From a virus: a DNA stretch of 56,695 bases. How positions within the stretch are numbered: the stretch's first letter is position 1; each line of letters opens with the position of its first letter. Under the pieces are notes generated by a model. It was given only the letters and a program-made list of their open reading frames with translations. It had not been told where the DNA came from and searched no databases. This document shows, one piece after another, positions 6,655 to 48,134 of this stretch. The stretch lies in the IMG/VR virus record IMGVR_UViG_3300046063_000009. One strand, 5' to 3'. The position numbers were made by a program, and so were the translations under genes.

Positions 6655-6670
6655 GCTACATAGCATAATA

Positions 6671-6706
6671 ATGCCCGCCGCTATATAAATGTATAGCATA
6701 GCGGTG
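6671..6706 (-). promoter_or_regulatory. Conserved viral promoter, copy a
   Basis: Coding strand reads CACCGCTATGCTATACATTTATATAGCGGCGGGCAT, with the blocks GCTATGC / TACATTTAT (TATA) / CGGG(T/C)A, 16 nt before the ATG at 6654. Confidence 0.65.
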
Positions 6707-13091: not shown

Positions 13092-13566
13092 TGACTCTCA
13101 CCTCGGCAGTGACCGCGTACTTCGACGTCTCGTATAGCGTCAGTCTGACTCCCTGCACCGCGTCGTGCTCGTACACTAAGCGCCGCGCCATCCACCAGAC
13201 CAGCGTCTCGCAGGTCGGGTCGGTCTCGAAGGTGTGGACGCGCTCGGCGGCCTGCCCCTCGATGTCGCCGGAGGCGAGCACGTCGGCGAGGGGGTCGTCC
13301 TCGAACAGCAGCACCGCGTGATCCACCGCGTCGAGCGTATCGCGGAGGTCCTTGAGATCGACCGGCATCGCTCTAGTAGCGCCATCGGGGTCGGTACTGG
13401 GGTCGGGGTCCATCATGGAGACGACCGCTGCGAGTTCCCAGCGTAGGTTATGACCGTGGACGCTCCCGCAGGCTCCATCGTACTCGAACAGTCGGTGGGC
13501 CGTGCTCGTGCTCTGCTCGACGGTAAGCACGCGCTCGTCGGGATCGAGATCTGTGTCAGTTGGCAT
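13084..13566 (-). CDS. queD: 6-carboxy-5,6,7,8-tetrahydropterin synthase
   Basis: HRLFEYDGACGSVHGHNLRWE (QueD/PTPS His motif), 160 aa, within the operon. Confidence 0.8.
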   Translation of the reverse strand: MPTDTDLDPDERVLTVEQSTSTAHRLFEYDGACGSVHGHNLRWELAAVVSMMDPDPSTDPDGATRAMPVDLKDLRDTLDAVDHAVLLFEDDPLADVLASGDIEGQAAERVHTFETDPTCETLVWWMARRLVYEHDAVQGVRLTLYETSKYAVTAEVRVSE

Positions 13567-15076
13567 ACTCGATCACCTCCCCAGCGCCGTTGATCCGAAA
13601 CGCCGTCTTCCGCATGAAGCACGGTCCGCACTCCCCGCAGTGGAGCTCGCCGTCTTCGTAGCACGACCAGGTAAGATCGAGTGGCGCACCGAGATCGAGC
13701 CCCCGCCCGACGATCTCGTGTTTCATCAGGTTGCCCACCGGCATCGATACGTCTACGTGAGCGTCCGCGGCCGTCGCGTAGGGCAGCACGTCGGCGAAGC
13801 AGTCAATGAAGGCCATCTCGTTGTCGGGGAACGCGCCGGCTTCCTCGAGATTGTTCCCGAGAGCGAGGACGTCGTAGCCCTGCGCTTCGGCGATACCGGT
13901 AGCGACCGAGAGCATGAGCAGGTTGCGAGCGGGCACCCACTCGTGCGCGAACTCCGCGCCCTCCTCGCCACCGGCTATCGCAGCCGCCTCCTCGCTGGCA
14001 GCGTCACCGTTGCCAGCCAGCAGCGCCGATCCGCCGATCATGTCGTAGACATCGGTATCGGCGACCAGCAGCGGGACGCCGAGACGGTTCGATATTTTCT
14101 CGACTGCTGCGCGCTCGGAGTCCTCCGATCGGTGGCGATAGGAGAAGTGCAGCAGCGTCACGTCATAGCCCTCAGCGAGCATCTGCGAGGCGACCGTCGT
14201 GGAGTCCAGGCCGCCCGAGGCGATGACCAGCGCTCGCGCGCTCTCGCTCCCGCTCTCATCGTGCCTCGAAGCGTGGCTGTCGAACGCCGGCATCGGCGTC
14301 GGCGGCGCGAGCGAGTGCGTGCGGATCTCCTCGTCAGTGATCGTGGTCAGCGTGTAGGGGTCGATCTCGCGCGTCGAGATCCCGCCGGCATAGAGGCCGT
14401 CCTGGTCGGGCGGGAGCGAGGCGCGGAGGTAGCGCTCCGACGATGAGAAATAGAGCGTCCCCAGGTGGTCGTCGTACATGAGCGCGAGGGGCTTGTAGTT
14501 GCACGCCAGATGGAGGCGATCGGGGTGCTCGCGGTCGAGCACCGCCAGCGCGTAGGAGCCGACCACCTCGTTGACCAGGATGTCGCGCAGGTCCTCGTCG
14601 CTCCCGTCCCACGTCGCGGCGAGCAGGCATGGCAGGACTGCCGTATCGATCTCGCTCACTGGATCGAGGTCATACGCTTCGCGCAGCTCGTCGTCGTTAG
14701 CGATCGTCCCGTTGTGACTCACCCAGTAGCGCCCGCTCGGATCGGGGAAGGGCTGAACGTCGCTATCCGGGTCCTTCTGCTCGACGTACTCAGTGGTCGG
14801 CTCCGCGCGATTGTTATTGATGATCGCCCTGGCAGCAGTGAACCCGAGCGCTTCGGGCTTTGTCGAGCCGGCGGCCCGGAGCGGGGCAGTCGCGTCATCG
14901 GGGTGGCCGACCTCGCGATTGAGGCCGACCCCGCCCTCGGGAGTGATGCCGACGTACCCACAGGAGTCGCGCCCACGGTCGGCGGCGGCCTCGATCACCG
15001 TTGCGAGACGTGAGAGCCTGGCCGGAGCGAGGTCGTCAGGAGGGTGTCGAACGAACAGTCCGCTGATCGAGCACAT
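13556..15076 (-). CDS. queC: Glutamine amidotransferase (class II, Ntn) fused to 7-cyano-7-deazaguanine synthase (Gat-QueC)
   Basis: Starts MCSISGLF (catalytic Cys2). The C-terminal half has ALVIASGGLDSTTVA (PP-loop) and WSCYEDGELHCGECGPCFMR (QueC zinc site). Confidence 0.85.
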   Translation of the reverse strand: MCSISGLFVRHPPDDLAPARLSRLATVIEAAADRGRDSCGYVGITPEGGVGLNREVGHPDDATAPLRAAGSTKPEALGFTAARAIINNNRAEPTTEYVEQKDPDSDVQPFPDPSGRYWVSHNGTIANDDELREAYDLDPVSEIDTAVLPCLLAATWDGSDEDLRDILVNEVVGSYALAVLDREHPDRLHLACNYKPLALMYDDHLGTLYFSSSERYLRASLPPDQDGLYAGGISTREIDPYTLTTITDEEIRTHSLAPPTPMPAFDSHASRHDESGSESARALVIASGGLDSTTVASQMLAEGYDVTLLHFSYRHRSEDSERAAVEKISNRLGVPLLVADTDVYDMIGGSALLAGNGDAASEEAAAIAGGEEGAEFAHEWVPARNLLMLSVATGIAEAQGYDVLALGNNLEEAGAFPDNEMAFIDCFADVLPYATAADAHVDVSMPVGNLMKHEIVGRGLDLGAPLDLTWSCYEDGELHCGECGPCFMRKTAFRINGAGEVIEYAN

Positions 15077-16788: not shown

Positions 16789-16825
16789 GTGCCCCGTTAT
16801 AGATAAATGTAGGGCATAGCGATAG
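16789..16825 (-). promoter_or_regulatory. Conserved viral promoter, copy b
   Basis: Coding strand reads CTATCGCTATGCCCTACATTTATCTATAACGGGGCAC. Confidence 0.6.
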
Positions 16826-17270: not shown

Positions 17271-19118
17271 TCAGAGCACGTCCGACCGGAGGTCATCGAT
17301 CTGGTCGCGACGGCTCTGCTGCTCTATGATCTGTTCGAGGCCGGCGATGTTCAGCGAGTAGGCCTTCTTCCGGCCCTGTTTGTGCTCGGTGAGGATGTTC
17401 TGCTCGGCGAGGCCCGAGAGCACGGAGCGGACGGTGGTTTTGCCCGCATCGATCATCGGAAGCACGTCATCAACCGTCTGGGGACCGTCGACATCGGCGA
17501 GGTAGAACACGACCTTCCAGAAGTGCTCGTCCGAGCGGTCGGCCGACTCGGCGACAGCGGTGATCTGCTCGCGGACCGGATCGGCCCGGAGGAACTCGAC
17601 TCGCTCAGTGAAGTCCTCCGAGACGACTGAGGCGCGCTCGCGTAGCTGTTCGTTCTCCGCTTGGAGGTCTTCGACCGTCTCGCTCAGGTCATTGACCTCC
17701 GCCTGGAGGGCATCGCGGTCCTCGCGTACGGCGTCGAGCTCGTCGGTCGTCCCCTCGGAGGTGACCGGGTCGAACTCATCGGGACCGAAGCGCCGGAGAA
17801 CGGACTCGGCCTGCTCAACGAGATCCCCGCGCAACGATTCGAGGTCGCGCAGCGTTTCGAGTTCGGCTTCCAGTTGCTCTATCTGCTCGCGCTGCTCGGT
17901 GTGCTCCGCGCGGGCCTCCTCAAGTGCCTGCGACGTCTCCGATAGCTCCTTTTCGAGCTCGGCGCGCTCGGCGCGCAGCTCCTCTACCTGCTCGACTAGC
18001 TCCGGGGCCTGCACCTCCTCGGCGATGCTCCCCGAGACCTCGCCGGACTCGGCCATGTCGAAGAACTGCTGCATCGCGCGAGCGAGGCGGTTGTCGTCCT
18101 CGCGGGCCTCTTGAAGCTGGTCTACCCGCTCGGCGAGACGTTCGCGTTCGCTGCGTAGCTGGTCGATCTCGGCTTCCCGCTCGCTGCGCTGTTCGGCGTC
18201 GGCTTCGACCTCCTCTTGGAGCTCGGCGAGGACGGCTGCGAGGTCCTCGTCTGGATCTGGCAGGCTAAAGGTCTCCTCGCGGGGGTCGGGCGAGCGGCGC
18301 TTGCGAACGTCGGTCGGGCCGACGAGCGCGCCATTAGTGATCGTCCGACCACGCGCCATGATCTCGCCGACGTCCAGGGCGAGCAGCGTGCTGGCCTCGC
18401 ACTGGAGGGACTTCGCTGCGCGCTGGGCATCGTCGCCCTCGAGACCGTGGGCGATCCAGTCCTGGCAGAGCCGAATCACGCCGTTGTGGATGAACGCGCG
18501 GCGCTGGTAGCTCACGACCGTCGAGATCCCGAGGTTTCCCCCCTCGGTGGCAGCGCGGATCAGCTCGCCGCGACAGCGCCGGACGTACTCGCCTTTCTCC
18601 TCGGGCTCCGGTGCGTTGTCCTTCGGCGCGAGCCAGTGGGCCTCGTCGCCGACCAGCAACGAGCGGGTCCGATCGCCGGCTCGATACTTAGCGTGAGCGC
18701 GCTCGTTGAGCGACCGGAGCGCTTTCGCTGCCGCGAGGTGGACGCGCGAGCGCTCCTCAGTGGGATCAGCGTAGGTCGAAACGTCCACCAGCAGCTTCAT
18801 CCCGCGATCGAGAACCCACTCGCCGACGCGCTCCAGGTCATCGAGCGAGACGGCGAGATCGATCCCCTCGGCTTGGCGTGCGCCAACCACCACGAGATCG
18901 GCGTCTTCGTGGCGGACGGGAGTGAGCGCGCCGAGGCGTTCGATCACGAGCGTCGGCAGGCCCACTCCGGCGAGGTCTTCGAGCACGACGGCATCCGTGT
19001 TCGACTTCCCCGTGTTCGAGGTGCCCTCGATTGAGAGCCGGAAGTCGTTCGCGGCGACGGGATCGAACTCGATCGACCCGAGTGTGACGGTGCTGTCGGC
19101 TTCGCTCTCAGTGCTCAT
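17271..19118 (-). CDS. HerA/FtsK-like P-loop ATPase with a long coiled coil and a C-terminal winged-helix domain
   Basis: Walker A SIEGTSNTGKSNT and Walker B LLVGDEAHWLAP. About 200 aa of heptad-like E/R/L-rich sequence. C-terminus GKTTVRSVLSGLAEQNILTEHKQGRKKAYSLN. Trimmed to the ATG at 19118. Confidence 0.6.
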   Translation of the reverse strand: MSTESEADSTVTLGSIEFDPVAANDFRLSIEGTSNTGKSNTDAVVLEDLAGVGLPTLVIERLGALTPVRHEDADLVVVGARQAEGIDLAVSLDDLERVGEWVLDRGMKLLVDVSTYADPTEERSRVHLAAAKALRSLNERAHAKYRAGDRTRSLLVGDEAHWLAPKDNAPEPEEKGEYVRRCRGELIRAATEGGNLGISTVVSYQRRAFIHNGVIRLCQDWIAHGLEGDDAQRAAKSLQCEASTLLALDVGEIMARGRTITNGALVGPTDVRKRRSPDPREETFSLPDPDEDLAAVLAELQEEVEADAEQRSEREAEIDQLRSERERLAERVDQLQEAREDDNRLARAMQQFFDMAESGEVSGSIAEEVQAPELVEQVEELRAERAELEKELSETSQALEEARAEHTEQREQIEQLEAELETLRDLESLRGDLVEQAESVLRRFGPDEFDPVTSEGTTDELDAVREDRDALQAEVNDLSETVEDLQAENEQLRERASVVSEDFTERVEFLRADPVREQITAVAESADRSDEHFWKVVFYLADVDGPQTVDDVLPMIDAGKTTVRSVLSGLAEQNILTEHKQGRKKAYSLNIAGLEQIIEQQSRRDQIDDLRSDVL

Positions 19119-19395
19119 CGTCGGACTCCGCTGGGAGCGCGTACACGCCGACGTGAAGCGGCTCGTCTTTGCCATCGCAGACCGATTCGCCGGGCGAGAG
19201 GTAGCGGTGCATCGTCCCGCTGGTGAACGTCGATAGCTCCACCAGTACCACGCTATCAGGTTGGCGCTCCGCGCTGCCGGGTACATCCTCCCAGGAGGGA
19301 TACGTAGACACTACCGTCGGGTCGCCGAGGCTGTCGCCGGTCTCTGGAGCGGAGAGAGTCTGCACCTCCTTCTCGTAGGAAGCGGGCTCACCCAT
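19108..19395 (-). CDS. Hypothetical protein (95 aa)
   Basis: ATG start, operon overlaps, acidic. Confidence 0.7.
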   Translation of the reverse strand: MGEPASYEKEVQTLSAPETGDSLGDPTVVSTYPSWEDVPGSAERQPDSVVLVELSTFTSGTMHRYLSPGESVCDGKDEPLHVGVYALPAESDDEH

Positions 19396-21268: not shown

Positions 21269-21820
21269 TCAGGGGTCTTCGGAGTCCGCGCCGAAGCGGC
21301 CTGCCTGCGCGTACTCGTGCGCCCGGTTCACGATCTCGGCGTTGGCCACGCTCTCGCCCACTATGCGCAGGAACTTCACGTCGCCCTTGTCGCCGCGTTC
21401 GAGCATCACGTCGAACAGGTCGGAGAGCAGGTCGAAGCGAACCTCGTCCTGCACTCGATCGCCGTGGGCGCGTTCCGTCTCGATCCGCAGCAGGCGCGCT
21501 TCGGGGAAGTCGTACACGTCGCTCGGCTCGTTACGCGCGGAGCCGACGTACACGCACGTCCACACCGTGTCGCTCTCGGTAGCGTAGAAGCGCGTGTTGC
21601 CGTAGTTCTCCAGCAGCGCGTAGCCCTCGCGCTCGACCCACTCGTCTGCGCGGTCGGCGGCCTTCGCCTGCACCTGCATCGGGCGGCCCTGCGCGAGATC
21701 GAGCACGACGTCTCCTGGCTCGATCGGCAGGTCGCCTGTACGGGCTCGTGGAGCCGGCGTCGCCTGCTGATCTGTCTCGCTGTCCTGTGCCTCTGTCGTA
21801 GCGTGGTCGGGTTCGCTCAT
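21269..21820 (-). CDS. Hypothetical acidic protein (183 aa)
   Basis: The ATG at 21820 lies 16 nt after promoter copy c (the track start 21832 is a GTG). N-terminus MSEPDHATTEAQ is paralogous to that of the next gene. Confidence 0.75.
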   Translation of the reverse strand: MSEPDHATTEAQDSETDQQATPAPRARTGDLPIEPGDVVLDLAQGRPMQVQAKAADRADEWVEREGYALLENYGNTRFYATESDTVWTCVYVGSARNEPSDVYDFPEARLLRIETERAHGDRVQDEVRFDLLSDLFDVMLERGDKGDVKFLRIVGESVANAEIVNRAHEYAQAGRFGADSEDP

Positions 21821-21836
21821 GCTACGTCCCACCTAA

Positions 21837-21871
21837 CTACCCGCAAGAAAATAAATGTATAGCATAGCGCC
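21837..21871 (-). promoter_or_regulatory. Conserved viral promoter, copy c
   Basis: Coding strand reads GGCGCTATGCTATACATTTATTTTCTTGCGGGTAG, 16 nt before the ATG at 21820. Confidence 0.65.
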
Positions 21872-21945: not shown

Positions 21946-22881
21946 TTACTCGGTGTCCACGTCGAGGTCGCTCATCGCGTGCAGGTGCTCAAGCGCCTCG
22001 CCCTCGTACTTGAACGTCGCCCCGCACGCGCAGGTATATTCGTGCGACATCGATTCCATGCTCACCGAGTCGCCTTTCACCAGCTCGTCGGCGTCGGCGT
22101 CGTAGCCGTACTCGAACCGCTCGGCGAACACCACCTCCACCTCGATCCCGTGCTCGATCTCGCCGATCTCAGCCAGGAGATCGAGCATCGCGGTGCGCAC
22201 GCGGTCGAGCGAGCGCACGATGTTGGTCGCGCTGCCGTTCTCAGGGACCTCCACGTACAGGCCCTCGGCGTCTACGTCGAAGGCGTCGGCGATCGTGCGC
22301 GCCTGCTCGACGGAGCCGACCTTTACGATCGACTTGTAGTTGATCGCGTCGAGCGCTGCGTCGGCGTGCTCGTAGTCGCCGCCGTTTAGCAGCGCCTCGC
22401 CGTGCTCGCGCGCTGCCTGGGCGTGCCATTCCATCGTGAACGCATCGGGGAGCAACGTGGGCTCGTAGTTCTCCGCGTCGGTGCCCTCGAGAGCGCGCTC
22501 GGCGTCCTCGATCGTCTGCTCGGTGTCGGTGTCGTCGCTGTCGTCTGCCTGCTCCGCCTCGGGGTCGCTCTCGTTCTCGGCCTCGTCCTCGTCGGCGATC
22601 TTCTCGGCCTGCTCGTCGGCATCCAGCGCCTCGTTGACCAGGACCTCATCGACCTTGGCTTCGAGGATCGCGTCGTACAGGTCGGCGGTCTTCTTCCCGA
22701 CCGGCGAGACGCCTGGCGTCTCGCTCGCCAGGGGTTTGAGATCGCCGTAGACGATCTCGCCATCGTCGTCGCGCGTCTTGTAGTCGAGTGCCTTCTGCAC
22801 CTGCTCGCGCACGTCCTCGACGCGCGCGTCGTCAATATCTTCGATCTGTACCTCGGTCGTAGCGTCGTCAGTTTCGCTCAT
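21946..22881 (-). CDS. Hypothetical highly acidic protein (311 aa)
   Basis: The ATG at 22881 lies 16 nt after promoter copy d. N-terminus MSETDDATTEVQ. Confidence 0.75.
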   Translation of the reverse strand: MSETDDATTEVQIEDIDDARVEDVREQVQKALDYKTRDDDGEIVYGDLKPLASETPGVSPVGKKTADLYDAILEAKVDEVLVNEALDADEQAEKIADEDEAENESDPEAEQADDSDDTDTEQTIEDAERALEGTDAENYEPTLLPDAFTMEWHAQAAREHGEALLNGGDYEHADAALDAINYKSIVKVGSVEQARTIADAFDVDAEGLYVEVPENGSATNIVRSLDRVRTAMLDLLAEIGEIEHGIEVEVVFAERFEYGYDADADELVKGDSVSMESMSHEYTCACGATFKYEGEALEHLHAMSDLDVDTE

Positions 22882-22897
22882 GCTACACCGCAAAATA

Positions 22898-22933
22898 CTA
22901 CCCGCCGCTATATAAGTGTATGGGGTAGCGGTG
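22898..22933 (-). promoter_or_regulatory. Conserved viral promoter, copy d
   Basis: Coding strand reads CACCGCTACCCCATACACTTATATAGCGGCGGGTAG, 16 nt before the ATG at 22881. Confidence 0.6.
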
Positions 22934-27615: not shown

Positions 27616-27649
27616 CTACCCGGTAAGATATAAATGTACGCATAGCGCC
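27616..27649 (-). promoter_or_regulatory. Conserved viral promoter, copy e
   Basis: Coding strand reads GGCGCTATGCGTACATTTATATCTTACCGGGTAG. Confidence 0.6.
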
Positions 27650-27775: not shown

Positions 27776-28171
27776 TTAGCTGGTCGCCGGCGGTGCCGAC
27801 GCGGTGGTGTCATCGGCGTCGATCTCGCTGGTGACGTCAGCCAGCGAGGTAACGAGACGATCGATTGCTGCCGAGCGGGAGCGTGGCGTCTCGGTCCAGC
27901 CGGCGTCAGTCATGAGTGTCGAGAGCTGGTCGTCGGAGCACTCCTCGAGCATGGCGCGGATGCGGCGCTCTGAGCTGAGGGCGTGGTTCCGTGCAGTGCG
28001 ACCGTCAAGTTGCCCGCTCTGAGTGCGATAGTCGTAGCGCTCGGCGACCAGCGTCCAGGGCACCGAGGTATCGAGGTAGGCCGCGAGTTCGGCGGGGGGA
28101 GCACGGAGGTCGGGATTGATCCCTCGGAACGAAGGTGTCGATGCCGTGGACAAATCAGGATCGGCAGCCAT
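27776..28171 (-). CDS. Hypothetical protein (131 aa)
   Basis: ATG at 28171 with TATA-like CCTATAAATAAAA 24 nt upstream. It is the first gene of the leftward early block. Confidence 0.75.
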   Translation of the reverse strand: MAADPDLSTASTPSFRGINPDLRAPPAELAAYLDTSVPWTLVAERYDYRTQSGQLDGRTARNHALSSERRIRAMLEECSDDQLSTLMTDAGWTETPRSRSAAIDRLVTSLADVTSEIDADDTTASAPPATS

Positions 28172-28311
28172 GAACGAGTCTATGACCTCCGGCGGTTTTA
28201 TTTATAGGGTGCGTTTCGCCTCACGGTAGTCATACTTCAATGGATCGCCGGACGGGAGGCAGGTAGCTACCCGGACAGGTATAATTCGGTGGCCCTTTGA
28301 TTTCGACTGGA

Positions 28312-28350
28312 GCGCTGTCGATACCCCATACATTTACACGTTACGGGACA
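28312..28350 (+). promoter_or_regulatory. Conserved viral promoter, copy g (the only plus-strand copy)
   Basis: GCGCTGTCGATACCCCATACATTTACACGTTACGGGACA, 24 nt before the ATG at 28375. Confidence 0.55.
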
Positions 28351-28374
28351 TAAATTGAGGATAGCAGTGCAGTT

Positions 28375-29481
28375 ATGTCGGGATGCCACGGCACTCCGAT
28401 CCGATCACTCACCATGAGCAACCAGAACACAACCGCCGACCAGCAGGGCGATCACCGCCACGACCTTCCCTCCGACCCCGAGGACGAGGACGAGGGCGGG
28501 CGTGCAGGCTCGTCGTACACGTACGACCGGATTCACGCGGAGTACATTCCGCGCGAGCTGCGGCGCATGGCTCGCGCTCTCGATCTCGATGAGTCGGTGA
28601 TCGATCTCGCGCTCACCGTCGAGGAGCAGGCAGCGAGCGACGATCAGGAGCGCGAAGCGACCTTCAGAAGCACCGACGGGCGCGCAGCGGCGTGCCTGTT
28701 CGTTGCGCTGCGCCTCCAGGGTACCGGGGTGCCGATCTCGCAGGTGGTGGAGGTTTCGCGCGTCGAAAAGCGAACGATCCAGAACGCATACCGCGAACTC
28801 GTCCGGCGTTTGGGCCTGGAAGTACAGCCCGCACGCACCGGCCCGTTTCTCGAACGGTTCATGGACGAGCTCGGCGTGCCCGACGAGAGCCGCGAGCGCG
28901 CTCGGCGACTCCTCGAGGACGCGAAGGACGCGGGCCTCACTAGATCGAATCCCTCGGCGTCGAAGCGGACGCCAGTGCCACAGACCCTCGCTGGCTGTCT
29001 GGTCTACATCGTCGGGCGGATGGACGACCTCGGCATCTCGCAGGCAGCGATCGGTCGCGAGACGGGCGTGGCAGCGCCGACGATCCAGAAGCACTGGCTC
29101 AGGCTCGCGCGAGAGCTCCAGGTAGACGTCGAGCCACGCACGTTCGAGGCCAGCCCTGGGGACGGGAGTGCTGGCGAGGGGCGGTTCGGGACGGTCGATG
29201 ACGTCTTCGACGAGCTTCGCGAGCACGACCAGATTGGACCAGCACTGACGACCGACCTGGAGGCCGCTGCGCGCCGAACGATCCTCGACAGCGAGCTGCT
29301 GATCGGCGAGAAGCGGGTCGCGGGCGTGGTCGCCGGATCGATCTGGCACGTCCTTCGCGAGCAGCCCCGGTCGGAGCGCCCGATCGAGCAGCGCGATCTC
29401 GTTGCTGCGCTGCCGGTCTCGACGCCGACCGTGCGGAAGCGCGCCGACGAGTTCGACGAGGCGCTGCACGGAAGCGACTAA
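28375..29481 (+). CDS. TFB (TFIIB)-like protein: cyclin-fold core repeats without the N-terminal zinc ribbon
   Basis: AAACLFVALRLQGTGVPISQVVEVSRVEKRTIQNAYRELVRRLGL and TLAGCLVYIVGRMDDLGISQAAIGRETGVAAPTIQKHWLRLAREL match the two TFIIB cyclin repeats. A third similar segment is VAGVVAGSIWHVL...VAALPVSTPTVRKRADEF. There are no N-terminal Cys pairs. An alternative ATG is at 28414. Confidence 0.7.
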   Translation: MSGCHGTPIRSLTMSNQNTTADQQGDHRHDLPSDPEDEDEGGRAGSSYTYDRIHAEYIPRELRRMARALDLDESVIDLALTVEEQAASDDQEREATFRSTDGRAAACLFVALRLQGTGVPISQVVEVSRVEKRTIQNAYRELVRRLGLEVQPARTGPFLERFMDELGVPDESRERARRLLEDAKDAGLTRSNPSASKRTPVPQTLAGCLVYIVGRMDDLGISQAAIGRETGVAAPTIQKHWLRLARELQVDVEPRTFEASPGDGSAGEGRFGTVDDVFDELREHDQIGPALTTDLEAAARRTILDSELLIGEKRVAGVVAGSIWHVLREQPRSERPIEQRDLVAALPVSTPTVRKRADEFDEALHGSD

Positions 29482-29515: not shown

Positions 29516-29992
29516 ATGGATCACGACTCCGATCCCCGGCACCTACCGAGTGGCTGCCTGCTCTGCGGGCGTCCACAACCTTCCCATCCAGCGCCGAGCG
29601 GCCATCTCTGTCATACCTGCCTGCGCGAGCGTGGCGAGGAGTGGGTACTGGAGCGCTTCGTGGATCACGGGTTCGCTACCGTGCTCGAGACGCGCGAGGA
29701 AACGGAGCGCTACGTCGGCGAGGAGGAGCCGGTGAGCAGGTGGACAGTTGACTCGGTGGAGTGTCGGTGGTGCGCGATGACGGTCGACATCGGGCGCGCA
29801 GCGCTGCGCGATGAAGCGGTGATCGCCACCGAGAGCCTGCCGTTTGAGCGCTACCCGCACCTGGCGACGGTCTGGTGCCAGACGTGCGCGATTCCAAACG
29901 ACCTGCTCTGCTCCGATCACACCCGCGACGTCGTGGACGACCACACTCCGATCGAGCACGTCGCGATCGAGGCGCTACGCCCCGGAGCGTAG
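29516..29992 (+). CDS. Cys-rich (multi zinc-finger) protein (158 aa)
   Basis: CLLCG...CHTC...CRWC...CQTC...C. ATG start 35 nt after the TFB-like stop. Confidence 0.7.
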   Translation: MDHDSDPRHLPSGCLLCGRPQPSHPAPSGHLCHTCLRERGEEWVLERFVDHGFATVLETREETERYVGEEEPVSRWTVDSVECRWCAMTVDIGRAALRDEAVIATESLPFERYPHLATVWCQTCAIPNDLLCSDHTRDVVDDHTPIEHVAIEALRPGA

Positions 29993-29999
29993 TGTAACG

Positions 30000-30266
30000 C
30001 TAGCTCTCGGACTCAGGCGATCGATCGAACACGAACTCCGACTCGGCTGCTCGTCGAGATGGATCATCGATCACCTCGGCTGTCGCGGCATCGGTATCCG
30101 CGGCGCTTCCGGCGACCCCCGTACAGATGGAGGTGAGCATCCCCAGGCCGAAGGCCGCGGCCGGGACAAACAAGTACACCAACACTTCGATACCGGGGAC
30201 CGTACCGGGGTCGAACGGAAGCACCGGGAGGCCGAGGGCGAGGCTGAGAACGAGTCCCCCGGTCAT
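30000..30266 (-). CDS. Small membrane protein (2 TM) with an acidic tail
   Basis: MTGGLVLSLALGLPVLPF...VLVYLFVPAAAFGLGMLTSICTGV. ATGA overlap with the upstream gene. Confidence 0.7.
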   Translation of the reverse strand: MTGGLVLSLALGLPVLPFDPGTVPGIEVLVYLFVPAAAFGLGMLTSICTGVAGSAADTDAATAEVIDDPSRRAAESEFVFDRSPESES

Positions 30267-30529
30267 TGGGATTCGAGCGGGTCGGAGCCGGGTGACTTGC
30301 CGAACTCTTCGTCGTGCGTCTCGATCAGCTTCCCGAGGGTGCGATCGAACTCCGAGCGGACGTCGCGGAGATCGTCGGTCGGGCTGCCGCTCACCTCCAC
30401 CGAGATCGACCCGAGCTGCCCCCGGATCGACGGCGGAATATCACTCGACTCCTCGAACTCCTCCTCCATACCGGCGCGCATCATCTCCTGCAGAAACCCA
30501 CCCTCACCGCGACCGCCGCCACTACCCAT
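30263..30529 (-). CDS. Hypothetical acidic protein (88 aa)
   Basis: ATG at 30529, acidic. Confidence 0.65.
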   Translation of the reverse strand: MGSGGGRGEGGFLQEMMRAGMEEEFEESSDIPPSIRGQLGSISVEVSGSPTDDLRDVRSEFDRTLGKLIETHDEEFGKSPGSDPLESQ

Positions 30530-30704: not shown

Positions 30705-30778
30705 GGTGTCACCCTGGCGTATGTCGAGTGGTGACGGCTCGGGTGACATACTGAGTATCGGGGTGACGGGGGAGTGAC
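30705..30778 (+). promoter_or_regulatory. (G/A)GTGAC repeat array, candidate operator of the RHH protein
   Basis: GGTGtCACC palindrome at 30705-30713. GGTGAC at 30730, 30742 and 30762, and AGTGAC at 30773, with spacings of 12, 20 and 11 nt. The last copy overlaps the GTG start. Confidence 0.45.
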
Positions 30779-31193
30779 AAGCAGCGAGAAGGCCGAGCGC
30801 CAGTCGATCCGACTGTATGACGACCAGACCGAGATCCTTGATCCGCGGATCGGAGACGGGGGGTTCGAGAACCGCTCCGAGGCGATCAGAGAGATGATTG
30901 AGGCCTACCCGGAGCTGCGCAGCGAGATCGACGCGCTCCGAGAGAACCGCGATGCGCTGCTCGATGAACACGAGCGCGAGCGCGCCGAGTTGGAGCGGGA
31001 GATCGACCGACTCGAAAACCAGTATCGCGTGCTGGTCAACGAGCGCCAGGACGAGAACCTGCCAGTGCCGCTCGACCGTGACCACGCGCTGCGCCGGTAC
31101 GCCGAGCGCCAGCAGCGCCGGAGCGAGCAACCCTTCTACCGACGGTGGTGGTGGCGGCTCGCCGGTGAGCCGGAGCTCGCGACCGGCGACTGA
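30774..31193 (+). CDS. Ribbon-helix-helix (CopG/Arc-like) regulator with a coiled-coil C-terminal half
   Basis: QSIRLYDDQTEILDPRI..GFENRSEAIREMIE fits a beta-strand/helix/helix pattern. GTG is the only available start after the in-frame stop at 30744. Confidence 0.6.
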   Translation: MTSSEKAERQSIRLYDDQTEILDPRIGDGGFENRSEAIREMIEAYPELRSEIDALRENRDALLDEHERERAELEREIDRLENQYRVLVNERQDENLPVPLDRDHALRRYAERQQRRSEQPFYRRWWWRLAGEPELATGD

Positions 31194-35556: not shown

Positions 35557-35592
35557 CTACCCCGTGGCAGATAAATGTACGCGATAGCGACC
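35557..35592 (-). promoter_or_regulatory. Conserved viral promoter, copy f
   Basis: Coding strand reads GGTCGCTATCGCGTACATTTATCTGCCACGGGGTAG, about 420 nt upstream of the primase-helicase start. Confidence 0.6.
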
Positions 35593-35693: not shown

Positions 35694-36314
35694 TCAGTAG
35701 TAGACACGGGTCAAGTCAAAGAAGCCGGAGTAGTATACGTTAGCATCCATTGAGTAGCAGAGCCCTATTCCACCACCCGCCGAGTAGCGGTTACCATCAG
35801 TGTGCGTCAGATCGGGAGCTGATCGATCGAACGTATCCTTCCCATCGATTCCTGCCGTACTCGACTCTTGGATCCGAACAGAAAAATCTCCAGCAGAGTT
35901 CTCCCAGCCAACGAATCTAGTGTCTCTGTTATCATTGTACCCGTCTGAGATGGTACCAGCGTCAACCCGAGCGACCCGCGTTAGCTGAATGAAACCATTA
36001 CCATCACGTCCGTCAGCATACCCGAGCACCGCAGATTCGCTGGCATCCAGGACAGCGAAGTAAAAATGACTACCATCGATAGCTCGAAAGATCGCCCCTG
36101 AATAAACGTGGTTTCGCATAAACGTCCGTATCTCGCCTTCGGCTGGAGCAGAACTGGAACTCCCGTCATTGACTATCCAAGCCTCTTCACCACCTGACTC
36201 TGAGAAAGTCAAACACGCTTCTCCGTCAACCACGCCCTTCCCTGAACTGCTTGATACGTGCCCTGGTGGATCTGTGCTATAGCCATCGTATTGAGTCCAA
36301 TCAACGAGCGACAT
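35694..36314 (-). CDS. Fibre-associated protein, possibly a concanavalin-A-like lectin/LamG fold
   Basis: Last gene of the tail module, lower GC, beta-rich Gly/Ser/Asp composition. The fold assignment is a guess. Confidence 0.55.
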   Translation of the reverse strand: MSLVDWTQYDGYSTDPPGHVSSSSGKGVVDGEACLTFSESGGEEAWIVNDGSSSSAPAEGEIRTFMRNHVYSGAIFRAIDGSHFYFAVLDASESAVLGYADGRDGNGFIQLTRVARVDAGTISDGYNDNRDTRFVGWENSAGDFSVRIQESSTAGIDGKDTFDRSAPDLTHTDGNRYSAGGGIGLCYSMDANVYYSGFFDLTRVYY

Positions 36315-36338
36315 TTTAGCAGTGTAAAGGCCTTGTAT

Positions 36339-36707
36339 TTAACTCTCCCACGATTCGGTCGTCTGTCGACTAGGGGTAGCAGGGGGTATCTCCTCCCAGG
36401 AATCGCTATCAGCAACCGCTCCGAAGCCAGGGGGTATCTCCTCCCACCCCTCAAAGGGTACCGCTCCACTCTTCGATACCGGCGTTCCCGAGACGGAGAC
36501 GTATGAGTCGCCACCACCGTCCAGCAGCGACTCGCCAGAGATGAACTCATAGTCGTGCTCGCCAACGCCGAGGGGCACCCGATCACCTGATTGAAACACA
36601 TACGTCGAGGCTGCCGAGATCTGCCCGTCGATGCCGATGAGCTGGAGGCCGAAGTCCGGCGGTCCCGGTTCCTCCCAGCGTTCGACGGTTTCGAGCGTGC
36701 CGACCAT
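36339..36707 (-). CDS. Hypothetical tail-module protein (122 aa) with an internal WEEIPP duplication
   Basis: The 19-nt repeat cagggggtatctcctccca occurs at 36380-36398 and 36428-36446. ATG at 36707. Confidence 0.65.
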   Translation of the reverse strand: MVGTLETVERWEEPGPPDFGLQLIGIDGQISAASTYVFQSGDRVPLGVGEHDYEFISGESLLDGGGDSYVSVSGTPVSKSGAVPFEGWEEIPPGFGAVADSDSWEEIPPATPSRQTTESWES

Positions 36708-36811
36708 TAGTTCTGTACCTCACCGTCGTATCGGTCGATCTGCTCGCCGACCATCATTGCTCGCTTCTGGTATTGGGTTGTATGGTGTGACATGGTTACT
36801 ACCTCGTGCAT
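36707..36811 (-). CDS. Small ORF (34 aa), tentative
   Basis: MHEVVTMSHHTTQYQKRAMMVGEQIDRYDGEVQN. It fills the gap between the fibre stop (36822) and the next start, with a TAATG-type overlap. Confidence 0.3.
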   Translation of the reverse strand: MHEVVTMSHHTTQYQKRAMMVGEQIDRYDGEVQN

Positions 36812-36821
36812 AGTGAGCAGC

Positions 36822-39023
36822 TCACCGCAGCGGTTGATATTGGACTCTGACATCAACACTGGCGCTTCCCTCTGTCTCTGAAAGCACAACCGCCCAGTTC
36901 CCAGCCGATTCGTCGTAATAGACTTTATCAACCGTTACTCCCACGTCCGATAGCCCTCCCCGCCCCGCCACGCTCACATCGAACTCGGACGGTTGGATCG
37001 GTCTAGAAAGTGCAGTCAAATCGGCGAACGAAAGCGTTGCTGAACCGCCGGCAGAGATCGTAGCAGTCTGGGTTTTGCTAATCGGATCGGCAAATCGCAT
37101 ATCCTCCTGACAGAGAAGCCCGGCAGCATACCCATCAGCTGTCGACCCGTCGAAATAGTTGACAGCCACATCGTCCGAATGCCCCCAGTACACACTTTGT
37201 CCCGAGCTGTTAGGACTAGAACTGATATTCACTTCTCCATTGTTGAATGTCGCTCCCCCTTTTCTTCCAATATGCCCGACATAGGTATTCGAGAAATTGC
37301 TCTGGAACCGGATCGCTTCGTCGTATTCAGCGTCTTGACAAACAATATATTCATAGATTGAGAGCCCAGTCCCTGAATCAACGACTGTAGAGGCCCCCGA
37401 AAGAGCTTTCTCATGCTTTATTTCGTTAATTCTGATTCGATGGTTGCTTCCAGAGAGGCGCACCATCGTCGTCGTGTCAGACTGGGATTCCTGTGCTATC
37501 GATTCAAAGCGCGCTTCCAATCCCGAATTGTTAACGTTGAGAACAATACTGTCGTCTTCTGGTCGGACGAGAATCGGCCCACACTCGATCGAATGAGCGC
37601 CTCCTCCGTTTGCATGAATGAAGCGGCCAGTATAGCTGAAGGCCGATAACTGCCCCCACCGAGCTGTAAATGGCCCAAATGAATCCAGATGGATCACGGG
37701 GTCAGTCCAGTTGGCGAAGCGAACACGGCCGAGATTGAAATGGCGGGCGTTAGCTCCAGAGAAATGGATCGCACTGCCGCCAGTCCGATCCACGTAACTT
37801 GAGCCGTCGAAGTTTAGATCGGTCATGAAGGCTCTCGCAGCGTCATTGAAACCTGAAACATCGAGACCATCGGCCGCTAAATCAGTCATCTCGATTATGG
37901 TCTCGCCGATCCCACGGCCAATGAGGCTCTTCCCGCCGAGACCGCTCAGCGTCGCTGCTTCCGTTATCCGTTTGGATGGAAGCAAAATTATTCCGTTCTG
38001 CGATCCCGAGCCGGTACCGTTAATTGCATCGATGGCATCTTGGACGGGGGTTGTGGTCGCAGTGGGGTCTATCGCATCGATGGCCCCCAATCCCTCCGCA
38101 ATCGGAACGACAAGTCCATCCCAGGCGGCTTGGATGTTGCTGTTGGCTATGTCGTTGACTACCTGCTCTGTAGTTACCGACGTGAGCGGGGTCGTCCCGC
38201 CGAGAGCCTGCCCGTCGTGGCGGTGGCTCGTATCCGATTTTCCATCGAGTTCCTGTTTCCTCCCGACGTCGCTCGCTGTACTCGGCGCGGAGCTTACCCG
38301 TGCTGCCGAGAGTTCTGCACGGGCGTTCTGAATACCACCCGCTCCATCGCTCTCGGCGTACAACCGGGCGAGCGGCGTCCCGTCGATCGCCAGGTCGTAG
38401 CTCTGCTCCGTCCCTGCTGCTGCGTTCCCGTCTACCGGCGCATCGACGATCGCTCCATAGCCACCGGGGTTCGTCCCGAGGTCGTGCGGGAAGGCGTTCT
38501 TCGACACCCGGTCGTCCAACTCACCGACCACGCCTTCTACCGTTCCGGCCTGAAAGTCTCCATCAGAATCGGTGACGACGGTACTCTCGGCATCCTGATG
38601 TTGAGCACGCCAGTTATGTACGTACCCGTCGGGAAGTACATCGTCAAATCCCTGCGGGACGTAGACGACGCCGAGTAGGAGTTCGTCGCCCTGGAGCGTC
38701 GCCGGCTCAGGTGCGGCGGCTGGCGTTCCGGCGCGAAGACCGATCGTACTGGCCGCCGTATCGAAATAGATGGTATCCCAACGGTCGTAGGTCCCATCCC
38801 CGACACCGACGGTGAGACTCGTCCCGCTCGCGCTCGCCTCGGTACCGAGGTAAACTGCCGTCCCACCACCGACGTCAACCTCACGCACGTTCGCCGTTGG
38901 CGAGATTTCGAAGTCGACCGGGGCTCGTACCCCGTTCCCGGCCAGCCCCTCTGTCACCGCACGGAGCTGTACCTCGAATAAGGGATTGCCCTGCGGCCAG
39001 TCGAAGCCCGGAGCGTTCGGCAT
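36822..39023 (-). CDS. Tail fibre / tailspike with a right-handed beta-helix (pectate-lyase-like) C-terminal part
   Basis: 733 aa. GIILLPSKRITEAATLSGLGGKSLIGRGIGETIIEMTD followed by repetitive beta-helix-like turns. The C-terminal half has clearly lower GC. Confidence 0.65.
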   Translation of the reverse strand: MPNAPGFDWPQGNPLFEVQLRAVTEGLAGNGVRAPVDFEISPTANVREVDVGGGTAVYLGTEASASGTSLTVGVGDGTYDRWDTIYFDTAASTIGLRAGTPAAAPEPATLQGDELLLGVVYVPQGFDDVLPDGYVHNWRAQHQDAESTVVTDSDGDFQAGTVEGVVGELDDRVSKNAFPHDLGTNPGGYGAIVDAPVDGNAAAGTEQSYDLAIDGTPLARLYAESDGAGGIQNARAELSAARVSSAPSTASDVGRKQELDGKSDTSHRHDGQALGGTTPLTSVTTEQVVNDIANSNIQAAWDGLVVPIAEGLGAIDAIDPTATTTPVQDAIDAINGTGSGSQNGIILLPSKRITEAATLSGLGGKSLIGRGIGETIIEMTDLAADGLDVSGFNDAARAFMTDLNFDGSSYVDRTGGSAIHFSGANARHFNLGRVRFANWTDPVIHLDSFGPFTARWGQLSAFSYTGRFIHANGGGAHSIECGPILVRPEDDSIVLNVNNSGLEARFESIAQESQSDTTTMVRLSGSNHRIRINEIKHEKALSGASTVVDSGTGLSIYEYIVCQDAEYDEAIRFQSNFSNTYVGHIGRKGGATFNNGEVNISSSPNSSGQSVYWGHSDDVAVNYFDGSTADGYAAGLLCQEDMRFADPISKTQTATISAGGSATLSFADLTALSRPIQPSEFDVSVAGRGGLSDVGVTVDKVYYDESAGNWAVVLSETEGSASVDVRVQYQPLR

Positions 39024-44622: not shown

Positions 44623-46797
44623 TCAACGCCCGGAGTAGCCCGTCCGTAACCCGACGTCGGTGCCGATCTCCTCGGCGAGCATCCGGACGAGCTCTTGCAT
44701 CCGCGACCGCGACATTTGCGAGAGGTCCATCGTCTGATCGCCGATCTCGATAGTCCCGACGAGCGGCCCGTCGCCTGCCTGTCCACCGTTGGTCGCCTGG
44801 GCGGTCCCGCTACCGCCGCCCATCGCCTCCGCGAGCACGCCGCCGAGCGCCTCGGGATCGAACCCGCGCGACACGTCTGCGGGGGCTGGCACGACCGTCT
44901 CGCCTGGATGGAGCATCGCCGCTCCAGCCTGCTCGATGACCCCCCCGACGGCGAGCTGCGGCAGGTCAACCGTCGCCCCGCCGAAGGATTTCCCCCCGAC
45001 GTTGATCGTCGGCAACCCGACCGTCTCGGGAATCATCGCGTTCCAGGTGTCAGAAAAAATTGAACTCGCCGCTCTCGATACCGCGCCGGCCAGCCGCGAG
45101 ATCCGCCCGGGAAGCCGGCGTTCGAGATCGGCGATCGCGCTCCCCAACCGATCGAACGGTTTGAGCAGCGCCCTCTTCGCCGAGGACGCCACCCCGGTTA
45201 GCTTCTGCCACACGGTTCGACCCGCGCTCGCGCTCGTCCGAACGAGCCAGTCGTAGGTGCCCGTCACCCAATCGATCACGCCGCCTTTGAACCCCCTCCA
45301 CGCGCCGACCGCCGGCTGGACGACGTTCGTGTCGAGCCACTGGCCGACGCCGGCGAAGGTTCGCTCCCAGACATCGAAGAGCACGCCAGCGACCCGGCCA
45401 GCCTCACGGAAGCCAGCATCCACCGCCGGCACCAGCCCCTCGTCGATCTTTGAGGCGAAGCCGTTGATGAACCCCCCGAGCACGGCGATGATCCCGCCCC
45501 CACCGAGTGACCACGCGGTGAGGATCGCGTCGGCCGTCCCGGGGCCGATCCATTTGCGCAGCTTCTCGCCATACTCGCTGACCGTATCCATCACCCCGGA
45601 GTTCTGGAGCTGCCGAACGACCGCCACGCCAAGCGCCGCCCCGATCGCCGCTCCCCACGACTTCCCGCCCGCGAACTTGAGGATCGACCACCCGATCCGT
45701 AGCATCGACTTCAGCGGTCCCTTCAGTCTCCCGAGCCACCTCGCTGCCGTCTGGACGGCGCTACGGATGTACTGGCCGATGTTCAGCTTCGCGAACGCCC
45801 GGACGATCCTGCCGACCCACCCGCGCGCCCACTTCACAGCGCCACTGAGCGCCCCCCGGAGTGCCCCCGCTGCACGACTCGCGTACTGCCTGACCAGCCG
45901 CGGCAGCTCGCGGAGCCGGGGGATTCGAGCGAGCAGTCGGCCGACCCACTTCTTTACCCACCCGACGAGGCCTGACAGTTGCGCGCGGAACCACCGGGCC
46001 GCCTTCCCGGCGATCGCCTTTACGAGCTGCCACAGCCGCGCCAGTCGCGGGAACTTCGCCAGCAACCGACCGACCCACTTCTTTGCCCACCCGACCAGAG
46101 AACCGAGGAGCCGAGTAAACCAGCGCCACGCTTTGCCGGCGTACAGCTTGAGCGTCTGCCAAATCGCTCGCAGCGAAGGGAACTTCGATAACAGTCGGCC
46201 CACCCACTTCTTCGCCCACCCAACGAGTCGGCCAAGCGTCCCGGTAAACCAGCGCCATGCCTTCTGCGCGACCCCTTTGATGAACTGCCAGGCTTGCGAG
46301 AGCGAGGGGAGGCGGGCGAGGATGCGACTCACCCACTTCTTTACCCACCCGACAGCGCGCCCGAGAATCCCCTTGAGGAAGGCGACTGCTCTGCCGATCC
46401 ACTTCTTCACTAGAGACGGGATTGCCTTTAGCCGCTTCCAGATCGCCAGCACGCGGTTGATCGCCCGGAGTATCCACCCGATCGCCGAGCGGACGAGGCC
46501 CGCTGCCTTCCCGAACAGCCGGAGGATACCGAGCAACGACGTGAACTTCGCGATGAGGAAAAACAGCGTCCCGTTGAGCACCTCAGCCTTCGTATCGAAG
46601 CGATCGACCTGCCCCGAGGCCCGATCCATCGCCCCCGAGAACCGTCCCGTCTTCGCTGCGCCTCCGGCCATCCGACTGTTTGCGGCCTCCGTGCTCTCGG
46701 CGGCCTGCTGCGTCGCATCCTGGTACTTCTCAACTTCCTGCTGGGCCTCGTTGACCCCCGCGACCTTCGCTACCCACTCCAGCCCGCCGACGATCAC
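44623..46797 (-). CDS. Tail tape measure protein
   Basis: 724 aa, downstream of the chaperone pair. It has a helical repeat array, Gly-rich hydrophobic segments and a GTG start. Confidence 0.8.
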   Translation of the reverse strand: MIVGGLEWVAKVAGVNEAQQEVEKYQDATQQAAESTEAANSRMAGGAAKTGRFSGAMDRASGQVDRFDTKAEVLNGTLFFLIAKFTSLLGILRLFGKAAGLVRSAIGWILRAINRVLAIWKRLKAIPSLVKKWIGRAVAFLKGILGRAVGWVKKWVSRILARLPSLSQAWQFIKGVAQKAWRWFTGTLGRLVGWAKKWVGRLLSKFPSLRAIWQTLKLYAGKAWRWFTRLLGSLVGWAKKWVGRLLAKFPRLARLWQLVKAIAGKAARWFRAQLSGLVGWVKKWVGRLLARIPRLRELPRLVRQYASRAAGALRGALSGAVKWARGWVGRIVRAFAKLNIGQYIRSAVQTAARWLGRLKGPLKSMLRIGWSILKFAGGKSWGAAIGAALGVAVVRQLQNSGVMDTVSEYGEKLRKWIGPGTADAILTAWSLGGGGIIAVLGGFINGFASKIDEGLVPAVDAGFREAGRVAGVLFDVWERTFAGVGQWLDTNVVQPAVGAWRGFKGGVIDWVTGTYDWLVRTSASAGRTVWQKLTGVASSAKRALLKPFDRLGSAIADLERRLPGRISRLAGAVSRAASSIFSDTWNAMIPETVGLPTINVGGKSFGGATVDLPQLAVGGVIEQAGAAMLHPGETVVPAPADVSRGFDPEALGGVLAEAMGGGSGTAQATNGGQAGDGPLVGTIEIGDQTMDLSQMSRSRMQELVRMLAEEIGTDVGLRTGYSGR
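45784..46482 (-). repeat. About 5.4 tandem copies of a 129-nt (43-aa) unit within the tape measure gene
   Basis: VGW(V/A)KKWV recurs at aa 149, 192, 235 and 278 (and degenerate at 321). The units are Trp/Arg/Lys-rich, e.g. GWAKKWVGRLLSKFPSLRAIWQTLKLYAGKAWRWFTRLLGSLV. Confidence 0.85.
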
Positions 46798-47789: not shown

Positions 47790-48134
47790 CGTCGAGTATA
47801 GGGGTTGCTTTATCCACCCGATCGACACAACAGTAATGGAGGTCGCCTCCATTGGGTAGCCCGACCGCCGGAGGGCTGAGAAGGTCTGTGTCGTCGGACT
47901 TCAGTTCGGGTCCTCCGAACGGTCACGAACACGCTACCATGCGCGCGGCTTCCCCCCGCGCGGGTCGGCCCGGTCTTCCCTCCCCCCTGGTTGGCGGGCG
48001 ACCCCCAACCATCGCCGGCCCTCTCACCGCCGCCGTGAACCACCCGCCGATCACCTGCCGGAACCCGGACGGTTCACGGGGTTACTTCCGATATAATTAT
48101 AGCCAAATAAACCTCGGAACGAGTAGAGTTGCGC

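Follow-up and report, generated by a model that had tools for sequence, protein, structure and literature searches.

The window analysed here is a 56,695-nucleotide stretch of viral DNA, IMG/VR record IMGVR_UViG_3300046063_000009. The gene in question lies on its plus strand at 28375..29481, where it encodes 368 amino acids from ATG 28375 to the stop codon at 29479-29481 with a GC content at third codon positions (GC3) of 0.82. An earlier note on this DNA had placed the start of the gene at 28312; that part is non-coding, an in-frame TAA at 28351-28353 closing the frame upstream, and the possible starts are ATG 28375 and, in the same frame on the plus strand, ATG 28414, which gives a product of 355 amino acids. 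A metagenomic twin of the protein (P0001, 98% identical) is gene-called from the equivalent of 28414, and residue numbers below refer to the 355-residue form. The product is a core of the archaeal initiation factor TFB that begins without a Zn-ribbon or a B-reader and ends in a third cyclin repeat, and the three peptide segments quoted in the earlier note are all present in its translation. The gene is best explained as a virus-adapted TFB paralog made of the promoter-binding half of the factor and a third cyclin/helix-turn-helix (HTH) repeat.

The Pfam family PF00382 (TFIIB) matches the protein in two stretches at 64.1 bits (cutoff 23.6; 1.2e-17), and a phmmer search against PDB sequences recovered the core of Pyrococcus TFB (1AIS_B/1D3U_B) with E=1.2e-16 and that of human TFIIB with an E-value of ~2e-11. 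NCBIfam PRK00423, which describes full-length TFB, is matched over profile positions 129-311 of 312 only (80 bits, cutoff 384), which indicates the core alone, without the N-terminal third. An AlphaFold2 model with a mean predicted local distance difference test score (pLDDT) of 77.5 and a predicted template modelling score (pTM) of 0.41 was aligned by Foldseek to 1D3U_B with a template modelling (TM) score of 0.77 and a root mean square deviation (rmsd) of 3.4 Å over 206 columns. With the TFIIB cyclin fold recovered by Pfam, hhalign and Foldseek, the two cyclin repeats proposed in the earlier note are borne out, and the identity of the protein as a TFB/TFIIB core is confirmed. Its PHROG match is phrog_20431, of unknown function, over the C-terminal two-thirds of that profile.

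Two alignments were used to describe the domains: A1, of the TFB-like protein with its three-repeat relatives (eight family members), and A2, in which six canonical haloarchaeal TFBs and the HRTV-DL1 viral TFB join the family (15 sequences). In A2 the TFB-like protein and its relatives begin at the last ~10 residues of the B-linker. No PF08271 match is found in the TFB-like protein, and gaps in A2 occupy the place of the Zn-ribbon, a CPECG...CxxCG element that is kept in P0152-154, P0009, P0010, P0016 and HRTV-DL1 ORF43; the B-reader/B-linker, recognizable in haloarchaeal TFBs by GPEWR, HD[KR]GLST and the RLRKWN helix, is also absent from it in this alignment. Ribbon, reader and linker are lost in all eight aligned family members, whereas the canonical TFBs and the HRTV-DL1 protein retain them. 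The N-terminus that remains is, as the earlier note had described it, acidic and devoid of Cys pairs: the net charge over residues 1-39 is -7, and at most one Cys precedes the first cyclin repeat, present only with the start at 28375. Residues 1-32 (28414..28509, plus strand) form a tail that is predicted to be disordered (pLDDT <50) and is not conserved, being opposed by gaps in the relatives in A1.

The tail gives way to a family motif, S-Y-x-[WY]-x-x-x-H-x-E-Y-I-P, and then to cyclin repeat 1 (residues 33-136; 28510..28821, plus strand), delimited by the AlphaFold2 model, with helices at 32-133, and by the alignments; hhalign of the family repeat 1 against canonical repeat 1 gave 99.7%. The complete motif is seen in the TFB-like protein, P0002, P0004, P0005 and P0006, and P0003, P0029 and P0007 have just its ...Y-[IF]-x-x-E-I part (A1). 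Arg100 of repeat 1 is invariant (15 of the 15 sequences in A2), and we take it to be the equivalent of human TFIIB R169, the TBP-stirrup contact of the altered-specificity pair TBP E284R/TFIIB R169E; the V-S-R HTH of this repeat is retained in the TFB-like protein. Cyclin repeat 2 (residues 140-238; 28831..29127, plus strand; helices at 142-234) also matches its canonical counterpart at 99.7%. In canonical TFB this repeat reads the B recognition element (BRE) through an HTH with V-T-I-R (V283/R286 in human TFIIB). The recognition helix of the TFB-like protein, P-T-I-Q-K-H-W, is basic and contains the invariant Thr, and its recognition position, which is Arg in seven of the eight family members and in canonical TFBs, is Gln in the TFB-like protein and its twin.

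A flexible linker of ~21-25 residues (29128..29190, plus strand), with pLDDT <50 at residues 242-255 and a length that varies in relatives, separates repeat 2 from repeat 3 (residues 260-355; 29191..29478, plus strand). The latter has five helices at 261-352 and brings the full model to 15 helices in a 5+5+5 pattern, so that the third HTH-bearing segment recognized in the earlier note extends to a complete TFIIB-type cyclin repeat, one that is found in no canonical TFB. Compared by hhalign with an independent canonical TFB repeat 2, it scored 97.9% (E=5.6e-13, 82 columns), and with canonical repeat 1, 83% (E=8e-6); the reversed-sequence control remained below 1%, and on the same scale canonical repeat 1 against canonical repeat 2 gave 98.4% and E=1e-14. 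Modelled alone, repeat 3 again adopts five helices, with pLDDT 88.9 and pTM 0.84. Foldseek matches of this model are mostly Brf1, TFB, TFIIB and cyclins, at E-values of 0.3-1 that are by themselves not significant for a small domain, and its alignment to 1AIS_B has a probability of 0.98, TMq 0.64 and an rmsd of 2.9 Å. Single repeat-3 sequences do not reach the Pfam TFIIB threshold, which is why the repeat is left unannotated, and tblastn of repeat 3 against phage and plasmid records returned nothing meaningful. Helix 5 is net positive in seven of eight members, in a surrounding domain that is strongly acidic, and the length of the linker would let repeat 3 reach DNA about a helical turn or more past the BRE.

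The retained Arg that would contact TBP and the loss of the recognition Arg from repeat 2 of the window protein are compatible with an action away from DNA, in which the cyclin repeats would titrate either the host TBP(s) or particular host TFB paralogs, the latter by binding their N-terminal domain, thereby reprogramming the multi-TBP/TFB network; haloarchaea use many TBP/TFB combinations (PMC7289017). We regard such sequestration as quite improbable. The recognition helices of all three repeats are basic and conserved in an acidic protein, which argues for DNA contact, and many archaeal TBP-DNA complexes need TFB for stability (PMC7289017), so that a core-type protein would be expected on DNA.

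Relatives and genomic setting

Of 823 TFB-like matches from an exhaustive HMMER search through 1.84 billion cluster representatives, only a handful, P0001-P0006, P0007, P0029 and P0151, were matched from end to end, repeat 3 included, and begin at the core itself. The ribbon-less three-repeat architecture is represented by about nine cluster representatives, all metagenomic, with identities to the TFB-like protein of 98% for P0001, 35-41% for P0002-P0006 and 25-41% for the about nine overall; P0007, P0029 and P0151 are the more distant members. A word-index protein search with the single protein as query recovered the twin alone; with the A1 profile it added P0151 and canonical TFBs and nothing else, and with a repeat-3 profile it gave no matches. 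Scans of IMG/VR and of GTDB representatives found no relative and gave no provirus or host assignment. Between the window gene and its twin there are 19 nucleotide differences and 7 residue differences, and the division into ~12 synonymous and 7 non-synonymous changes indicates purifying selection on the gene. Since the architecture is shared by about nine representatives and synonymous differences from the twin are in excess, the ribbon-less form appears to be a selected architecture and no truncated pseudogene.

The window has PHROG matches to portal, large terminase, major head protein, tape measure, baseplate, tail proteins and primase, and its major capsid protein is 51% identical to that of HHTV-2 and 47% to that of HCTV-2 (both Saparoviridae); by its gene content it represents the genome of a haloarchaeal siphovirus. 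Megablast of one 3-kb and two 25-kb pieces against phage records gave no nucleotide-level match. Positions 1-55 are an exact direct repeat of 56641-56695, and because of this 55-bp end overlap the window is most likely a circularly closed, complete viral genome of ~56.64 kb. The close family members are also located on virus-like contigs, one of which (L003) shares with the window a baseplate/tail block at 38-50% identity and another (L004) the 445-amino-acid phrog_13083 gene at 46%. The divergent pairing of the TFB-like gene with a gene for 131 amino acids, in the early region, is found in the window, L001, L004, L005 and L007. Taken together, the virus-like contigs, the shared tail and phrog_13083 genes and the recurrent neighbour suggest that the TFB-like gene belongs to a module conserved in the early region of a haloarchaeal siphovirus clade.

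The 131-amino-acid gene occupies 27776..28171 on the minus strand, and by tblastn its relatives adjoin the TFB-like gene in L004 (42%), L005 (37%) and L007 (53% over 36 amino acids). It has no Pfam, PHROG, PDB or PADLOC assignment, and with the TFB-like gene it looks like a two-gene control module. A putative TATA-like box read from the sequence, TATAAATAAAA on the minus strand (28196..28206), lies 25-35 nucleotides upstream of its ATG and outside the promoter class, a-g, that is described below. The twin contig L001 is 98.5% identical to the window overall, with 46 differences in 3.1 kb. Between 27858 and 28636, a stretch that takes in the control region between the divergent genes and the 5' end of each, there are 0 differences in 780 nucleotides where ~12 would be expected, which points to strong constraint or recent recombination.

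Directly downstream of the TFB-like gene, a Cys-rich protein of 158 amino acids (29516..29992, plus strand) carries CxxC-x14-CxxC and CxxC-x34-CxxC. It has weak generic zinc-finger matches only, no recognizable TFB Zn-ribbon and no informative Pfam, PDB, PHROG or PADLOC assignment, and its gene is not kept beside the TFB-like gene in relatives. In L003 (768-1139) a 123-amino-acid protein with three CxxC pairs adjoins the P0002 gene upstream, and the same gene is present in L004 (4309-4680). Either of the two Cys-rich proteins could, in principle, be the second half of a split TFB, supplying the RNA polymerase-docking ribbon in trans: the window's candidate, with its CxxC-x14-CxxC, lies next to the gene, the best Pfam match of the L003 neighbour is PF08271, the TFIIB Zn-ribbon (21.5 bits), and Sulfolobus TFB3, of which such a core without a ribbon would be the mirror image, shows that TFB functions can come in trans (PMC7289017). 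However, that PF08271 score falls under the cutoff of 29 and the window's own Cys-rich protein has no PF08271 match at all; the two proteins are non-homologous and flank the gene on different sides, no Zn-ribbon gene adjoins it in L005, L006 or L008, and archaeal viruses very commonly encode small Zn-ribbon proteins. With no conserved partner across the family and only a sub-threshold PF08271 match, we largely reject a split factor as very improbable.

The more distant genes P0029 and P0007 (L011 5674-8146; L012; L013 232-2384) are translationally coupled to a downstream gene for a large multi-HTH protein. These partners contain at least 4 tandem HTH repeats of ~55 amino acids (C..LR..Y..G...T...H..G.C.H); the two are 34% identical, and one has a C-terminal HNH nuclease. 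A PLD/DrmC-like nuclease is also encoded nearby in L011. This context is non-siphoviral, and the coupled set may be a mobile genetic element (MGE) or defence-island module; by gene neighbourhood, the three-repeat ribbon-less architecture appears in at least two genomic contexts.

Promoters and proposed mode of action

Seven copies of a composite promoter motif, a-g, share the coding-strand consensus CGCTATGC-N2-3-TACATTTAT-N7-SGGG(TAG), followed by an ATG ~20-25 nucleotides later. The pattern TACAYTTAY-N6-7-SGGG occurs exactly 7 times in the 56.7 kb, six times on the minus strand and once on the plus strand, at 28329, in agreement with the earlier note's claim that the only plus-strand copy precedes the TFB-like gene. 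The six minus-strand copies stand at the head of leftward gene blocks, those with the primase and the DNA-modification genes among them: copies a (6674..6703), b (16792..16821), c (21840..21869) and d (22901..22930) were placed by motif alignment and pattern counts, e (35560..35589) heads the primase-containing block, and f (27619..27647) lies upstream of the 445-amino-acid phrog_13083 gene. The sole plus-strand copy, g (28319..28347), reads CGATACCC-CA-TACATTTAC-ACGTTA-CGGG and ends 28 nucleotides upstream of ATG 28375, the TACATTTAC core ending 37 nucleotides upstream. It is the most diverged copy, in CGATACCC and TTTACAC, and its stretch is 100% identical in the twin contig. The earlier note had named a GCTATGC block. 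The heptamer alone has 4 matches against 4.4 expected and is exact in only four of the seven copies; it was discarded as a stand-alone motif at chance level, and the composite motif alone is specific. A sigma-70-type promoter scan, a model irrelevant to archaea, found nothing.

Copies a, c and d are contained in 85-nucleotide repeats (6619-6703, 21785-21869 and 22846-22930) that run into coding sequence, and the genes behind them share the N-terminal peptide M-[SV]-E-P/T-D-D/H-A-T. These repeats are duplicated modules of promoter and 5' coding sequence, and, as they extend into the coding sequence, part of the similarity among the three promoters is due to duplication.

The a-g motif is not shared by relatives. 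In relatives with the gene the upstream block is a different one (CCTAATCGGTAG); L004 and L006 have an analogous block of their own, CCTAATCGGTA[GC]-TTTTAT-N-GCGGTAG, which in L006 stands directly upstream of the TFB-like gene. HHTV-2 (L009), which lacks a TFB-like gene, has its own conserved block in which a palindromic TTCCCTCRGGGAAACC abuts TTTATA, with GTGTAGCAGG near the start codon, in at least 4 copies (416, 1703 and 22336 on the plus strand, 38639 on the minus strand). The earlier note had matched the viral protein to a virus-specific promoter block; the motif is real, but the inference that a conserved block implies a viral TFB was rejected, HHTV-2 having a block and no such gene. Virus-specific extended promoters are a general feature of the group, and their presence alone is no sign of a viral TFB. 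The pattern TATA-N7-12-SGGTAG is present in gene-carrying contigs and not in the 100 kb of HHTV-2 and HCTV-2, and the recognition positions of repeats 2 and 3 are Q/R in the window protein and R/Q in relatives with the other promoter block. Both are weak leads; the difference in promoter blocks would fit co-variation, on the evidence of two groups only.

These correspondences would fit a positive role, in which the protein would replace host TFB on the a-g promoters as a virus-specific selectivity factor, repeat 3 reading the upstream (CGCTATGC) or downstream (CGGGTAG) element and RNA polymerase being brought in by a non-canonical contact that could involve the N-terminal motif, repeat 3 itself or a host factor, for example TFE. 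The promoter of the gene itself falls within the seven-copy class, gene-carrying relatives differ both in upstream block and in recognition residues (R/Q against Q/R), the TATA-N7-12-SGGTAG pattern follows the gene, the N-terminal motif is conserved, and viruses do carry full-length TFBs presumed to recruit host RNA polymerase, such as HRTV-DL1 ORF43 (PMC10544981). On the other side, all known elements for recruiting RNA polymerase and opening DNA are missing (A2; PMC7289017), the HHTV-2 block is equally conserved without any such gene, the co-variation involves only two promoter groups, and duplication accounts in part for copies a, c and d, so that some of the conservation reflects common descent, not selection. 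We consider this role rather unlikely.

Our preferred reading, held tentatively and at a little under an even chance, is that the protein occupies TBP-promoter complexes without recruiting RNA polymerase, its third repeat adjusting affinity or specificity. Repeats 1 and 2 would dock, like a TFB core, on host TBP bound at the TATA box, and the tethered repeat 3 would add a DNA (or protein) contact through its basic recognition helix, raising affinity or specificity for a subset of promoters. Because the Zn-ribbon, B-reader and B-linker are missing, the bound protein would neither dock RNA polymerase nor open DNA, and a protein that cannot recruit the polymerase would be a competitive, non-productive occupant of the complexes. 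Its targets might be host promoters, in a take-over of the host, or the viral a-g class, in a temporal switch that would include negative autoregulation through copy g. The established roles of the TFB domains make a promoter-occupying, non-recruiting protein a reasonable inference (PMC7289017): the second cyclin fold reads the BRE, and the B-reader and B-linker penetrate RNA polymerase and stabilize the template strand. There are also archaeal precedents in TFS4, a paralog turned inhibitor, and in RIP, a viral transcription shut-off factor (PMC7289017).

Several points weigh against this reading. It is not obvious why a simple decoy should have a third repeat or a conserved N-terminal motif, and either of these could be a new contact to RNA polymerase or another factor that makes the protein productive. 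The Gln in place of the recognition Arg in repeat 2 may alter BRE reading, and the distant context of P0029 and P0007 raises the possibility that the architecture serves a role other than competition with TFB. The inter-domain geometry in the AlphaFold2 model is unreliable (pTM 0.41).

A more specific role, which we judge unlikely, is that repeat 3 reads an extended virus-specific promoter element beyond BRE and TATA, making the protein a sigma-like selectivity subunit for TBP and RNA polymerase; it could act positively, through a non-canonical polymerase contact, or as a class-specific switch. TFB and sigma have been proposed to descend from a factor with repeated cyclin-like repeat/HTH (CLR/HTH) units. 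If the sigma-like role were true, the viral protein would be the first natural TFB with three CLR/HTH units and would bear directly on this proposal of common descent.

Other features of the viral genome

Further along the plus strand, a ribbon-helix-helix (RHH, CopG-type) protein of 139 amino acids is encoded at 30774..31193 (Pfam RHH_1, 23.4 bits, cutoff 20.5). The plus-strand island that the earlier note had drawn around the TFB-like gene stands as far as the Cys-rich and RHH genes are concerned, both being on that strand, but it is broken at 30000..30529 by two likely minus-strand genes, overlapping open reading frames (ORFs) of 88 amino acids each (ATGA overlap at 30263-30266) with coding-like GC3 values of 0.74 and 0.81. 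The proposal of an immunity or lifestyle-control region finds no direct support, the promoter of the gene belonging to the same class as those of the six leftward blocks. The accompanying statement that the genome has no integrase holds for the ORFs scanned, in a scan that was not exhaustive. The nearest isolates, HHTV-2 and HCTV-2, are not known to be temperate. No tRNAs were found in the window.

A second plus-strand island carries, at 48129-49376, a 415-amino-acid ORF with a TTG start, an acidic product, a GC3 of 0.80 and a positive local AT skew (+0.116). It has no family match and is probably a real gene, in which case the TFB-like gene is not, as the earlier note had it, the largest on the plus strand. 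The tape-measure gene (44623-46797) contains, at 45893-46356 on the minus strand, four tandem units of 129 nucleotides (43 amino acids), copies of which are 64-70% identical to the reference copy when aligned over 77 nucleotides. GC content falls to 0.54, against ~0.64 elsewhere, at 36001-38000, inside a baseplate/tail-fibre-like gene for 733 amino acids (36822-39023); since the PHROG family match of this gene stops at its first 250 residues, it may carry a swapped receptor-binding part.

At 13556-15076 on the minus strand, a 506-amino-acid glutamine amidotransferase/QueC-like protein (phrog_10428, E=1e-120) hints at DNA modification of the 7-deazaguanine type, and a ParB_N-like protein is encoded nearby at 10709-11680. 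A 671-amino-acid protein (17271-19286, minus strand) has long coiled-coil matches and a C-terminal winged helix like that of penicillinase repressor, at a sub-threshold 22.5 bits against 22.6, and may be another regulator or a structural protein.

Comparison with known systems

Archaeal viruses are thought to depend entirely on host TBP, TFB and RNA polymerase, and in haloarchaea TBP and TFB paralogs act like alternative sigma factors. The TFB-like protein bears on how archaeal viruses, especially those of haloarchaea, take over and time transcription. It is a natural probe of whether a mimic of a general factor, placed on promoters, can silence or re-target archaeal transcription, of the contacts made by an additional cyclin/HTH repeat and of the working of virus-specific extended promoters; these questions can be addressed directly with the ~40-kDa protein, host TBP and the seven promoters defined here.

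Like canonical archaeal TFB (Pyrococcus 1AIS/1D3U; haloarchaeal Tfb), the viral protein has two cyclin repeats with the same helix order, an Arg that we equate with human R169 and, in most family members, the T-[IV]-R HTH of repeat 2; its identity to haloarchaeal TFB cores is 29-31%. Unlike canonical TFB, it lacks the Zn-ribbon, the B-reader and nearly all of the B-linker and carries a third repeat on a flexible linker, and the G-R-S loop is replaced in the viral family by R-D-x-D or F-R-S-T-D. HRTV-DL1, another haloarchaeal tailed virus, also encodes a TFB homolog in its early/replication region, near primase (ORF43; OP630574); this protein was reported in virions and proposed to recruit RNA polymerase (PMC10544981). 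In contrast to the window protein, ORF43 is full length, with a CxxC...CxxC ribbon, reader and linker and only two repeats, and the two are only 25% identical over 146 residues. Italian rudiviruses and Asgard wyrdviruses and MGEs carry TFB homologs as well, so that carriage by viruses and MGEs is on record; these belong to other virus realms and hosts, and their published architecture is not described as ribbon-less or three-repeat. The literature consulted contains no functional characterization of the virus-encoded TFB homologs of HRTV-DL1, rudiviruses or Asgard wyrdviruses and MGEs, and no TFB that is ribbon-less or has three repeats was found described in it, nor a dominant-negative ribbon-less archaeal TFB. 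A large survey of haloarchaeal tailed viruses makes no mention of TFB, and a 2026 preprint explicitly proposes that viral interference in haloarchaea may be directed at host TFBs.

Among cellular factors, Sulfolobus TFB3 is likewise a naturally truncated TFB paralog, one that works together with TFB and is unable to substitute for it (PMC7289017), but its truncation is the mirror image, the ribbon being kept and the cyclin core lost, and it is a DNA-damage-induced activator. Brf1, Brf2 and Rrn7/TAF1B, which are among the weaker sequence and Foldseek matches of the TFB-like protein, resemble it in joining a TFIIB core to a C-terminal module peculiar to their lineage that contributes promoter or partner specificity; these factors, however, keep the Zn-ribbon, and their extensions are not a third cyclin repeat. 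With TFS4, the ATV protein RIP and the anti-sigma or sigma-appropriation factors of phages, by which host initiation is disabled or redirected, the analogy is functional only, as they are non-homologous and bind RNA polymerase or sigma directly, whereas competition at TBP-promoter complexes is proposed here. Virus-encoded TFBs were already known; the ribbon-less triple-repeat form defines a small, previously undescribed architecture, a new variant within the TFIIB superfamily that is carried by viruses.

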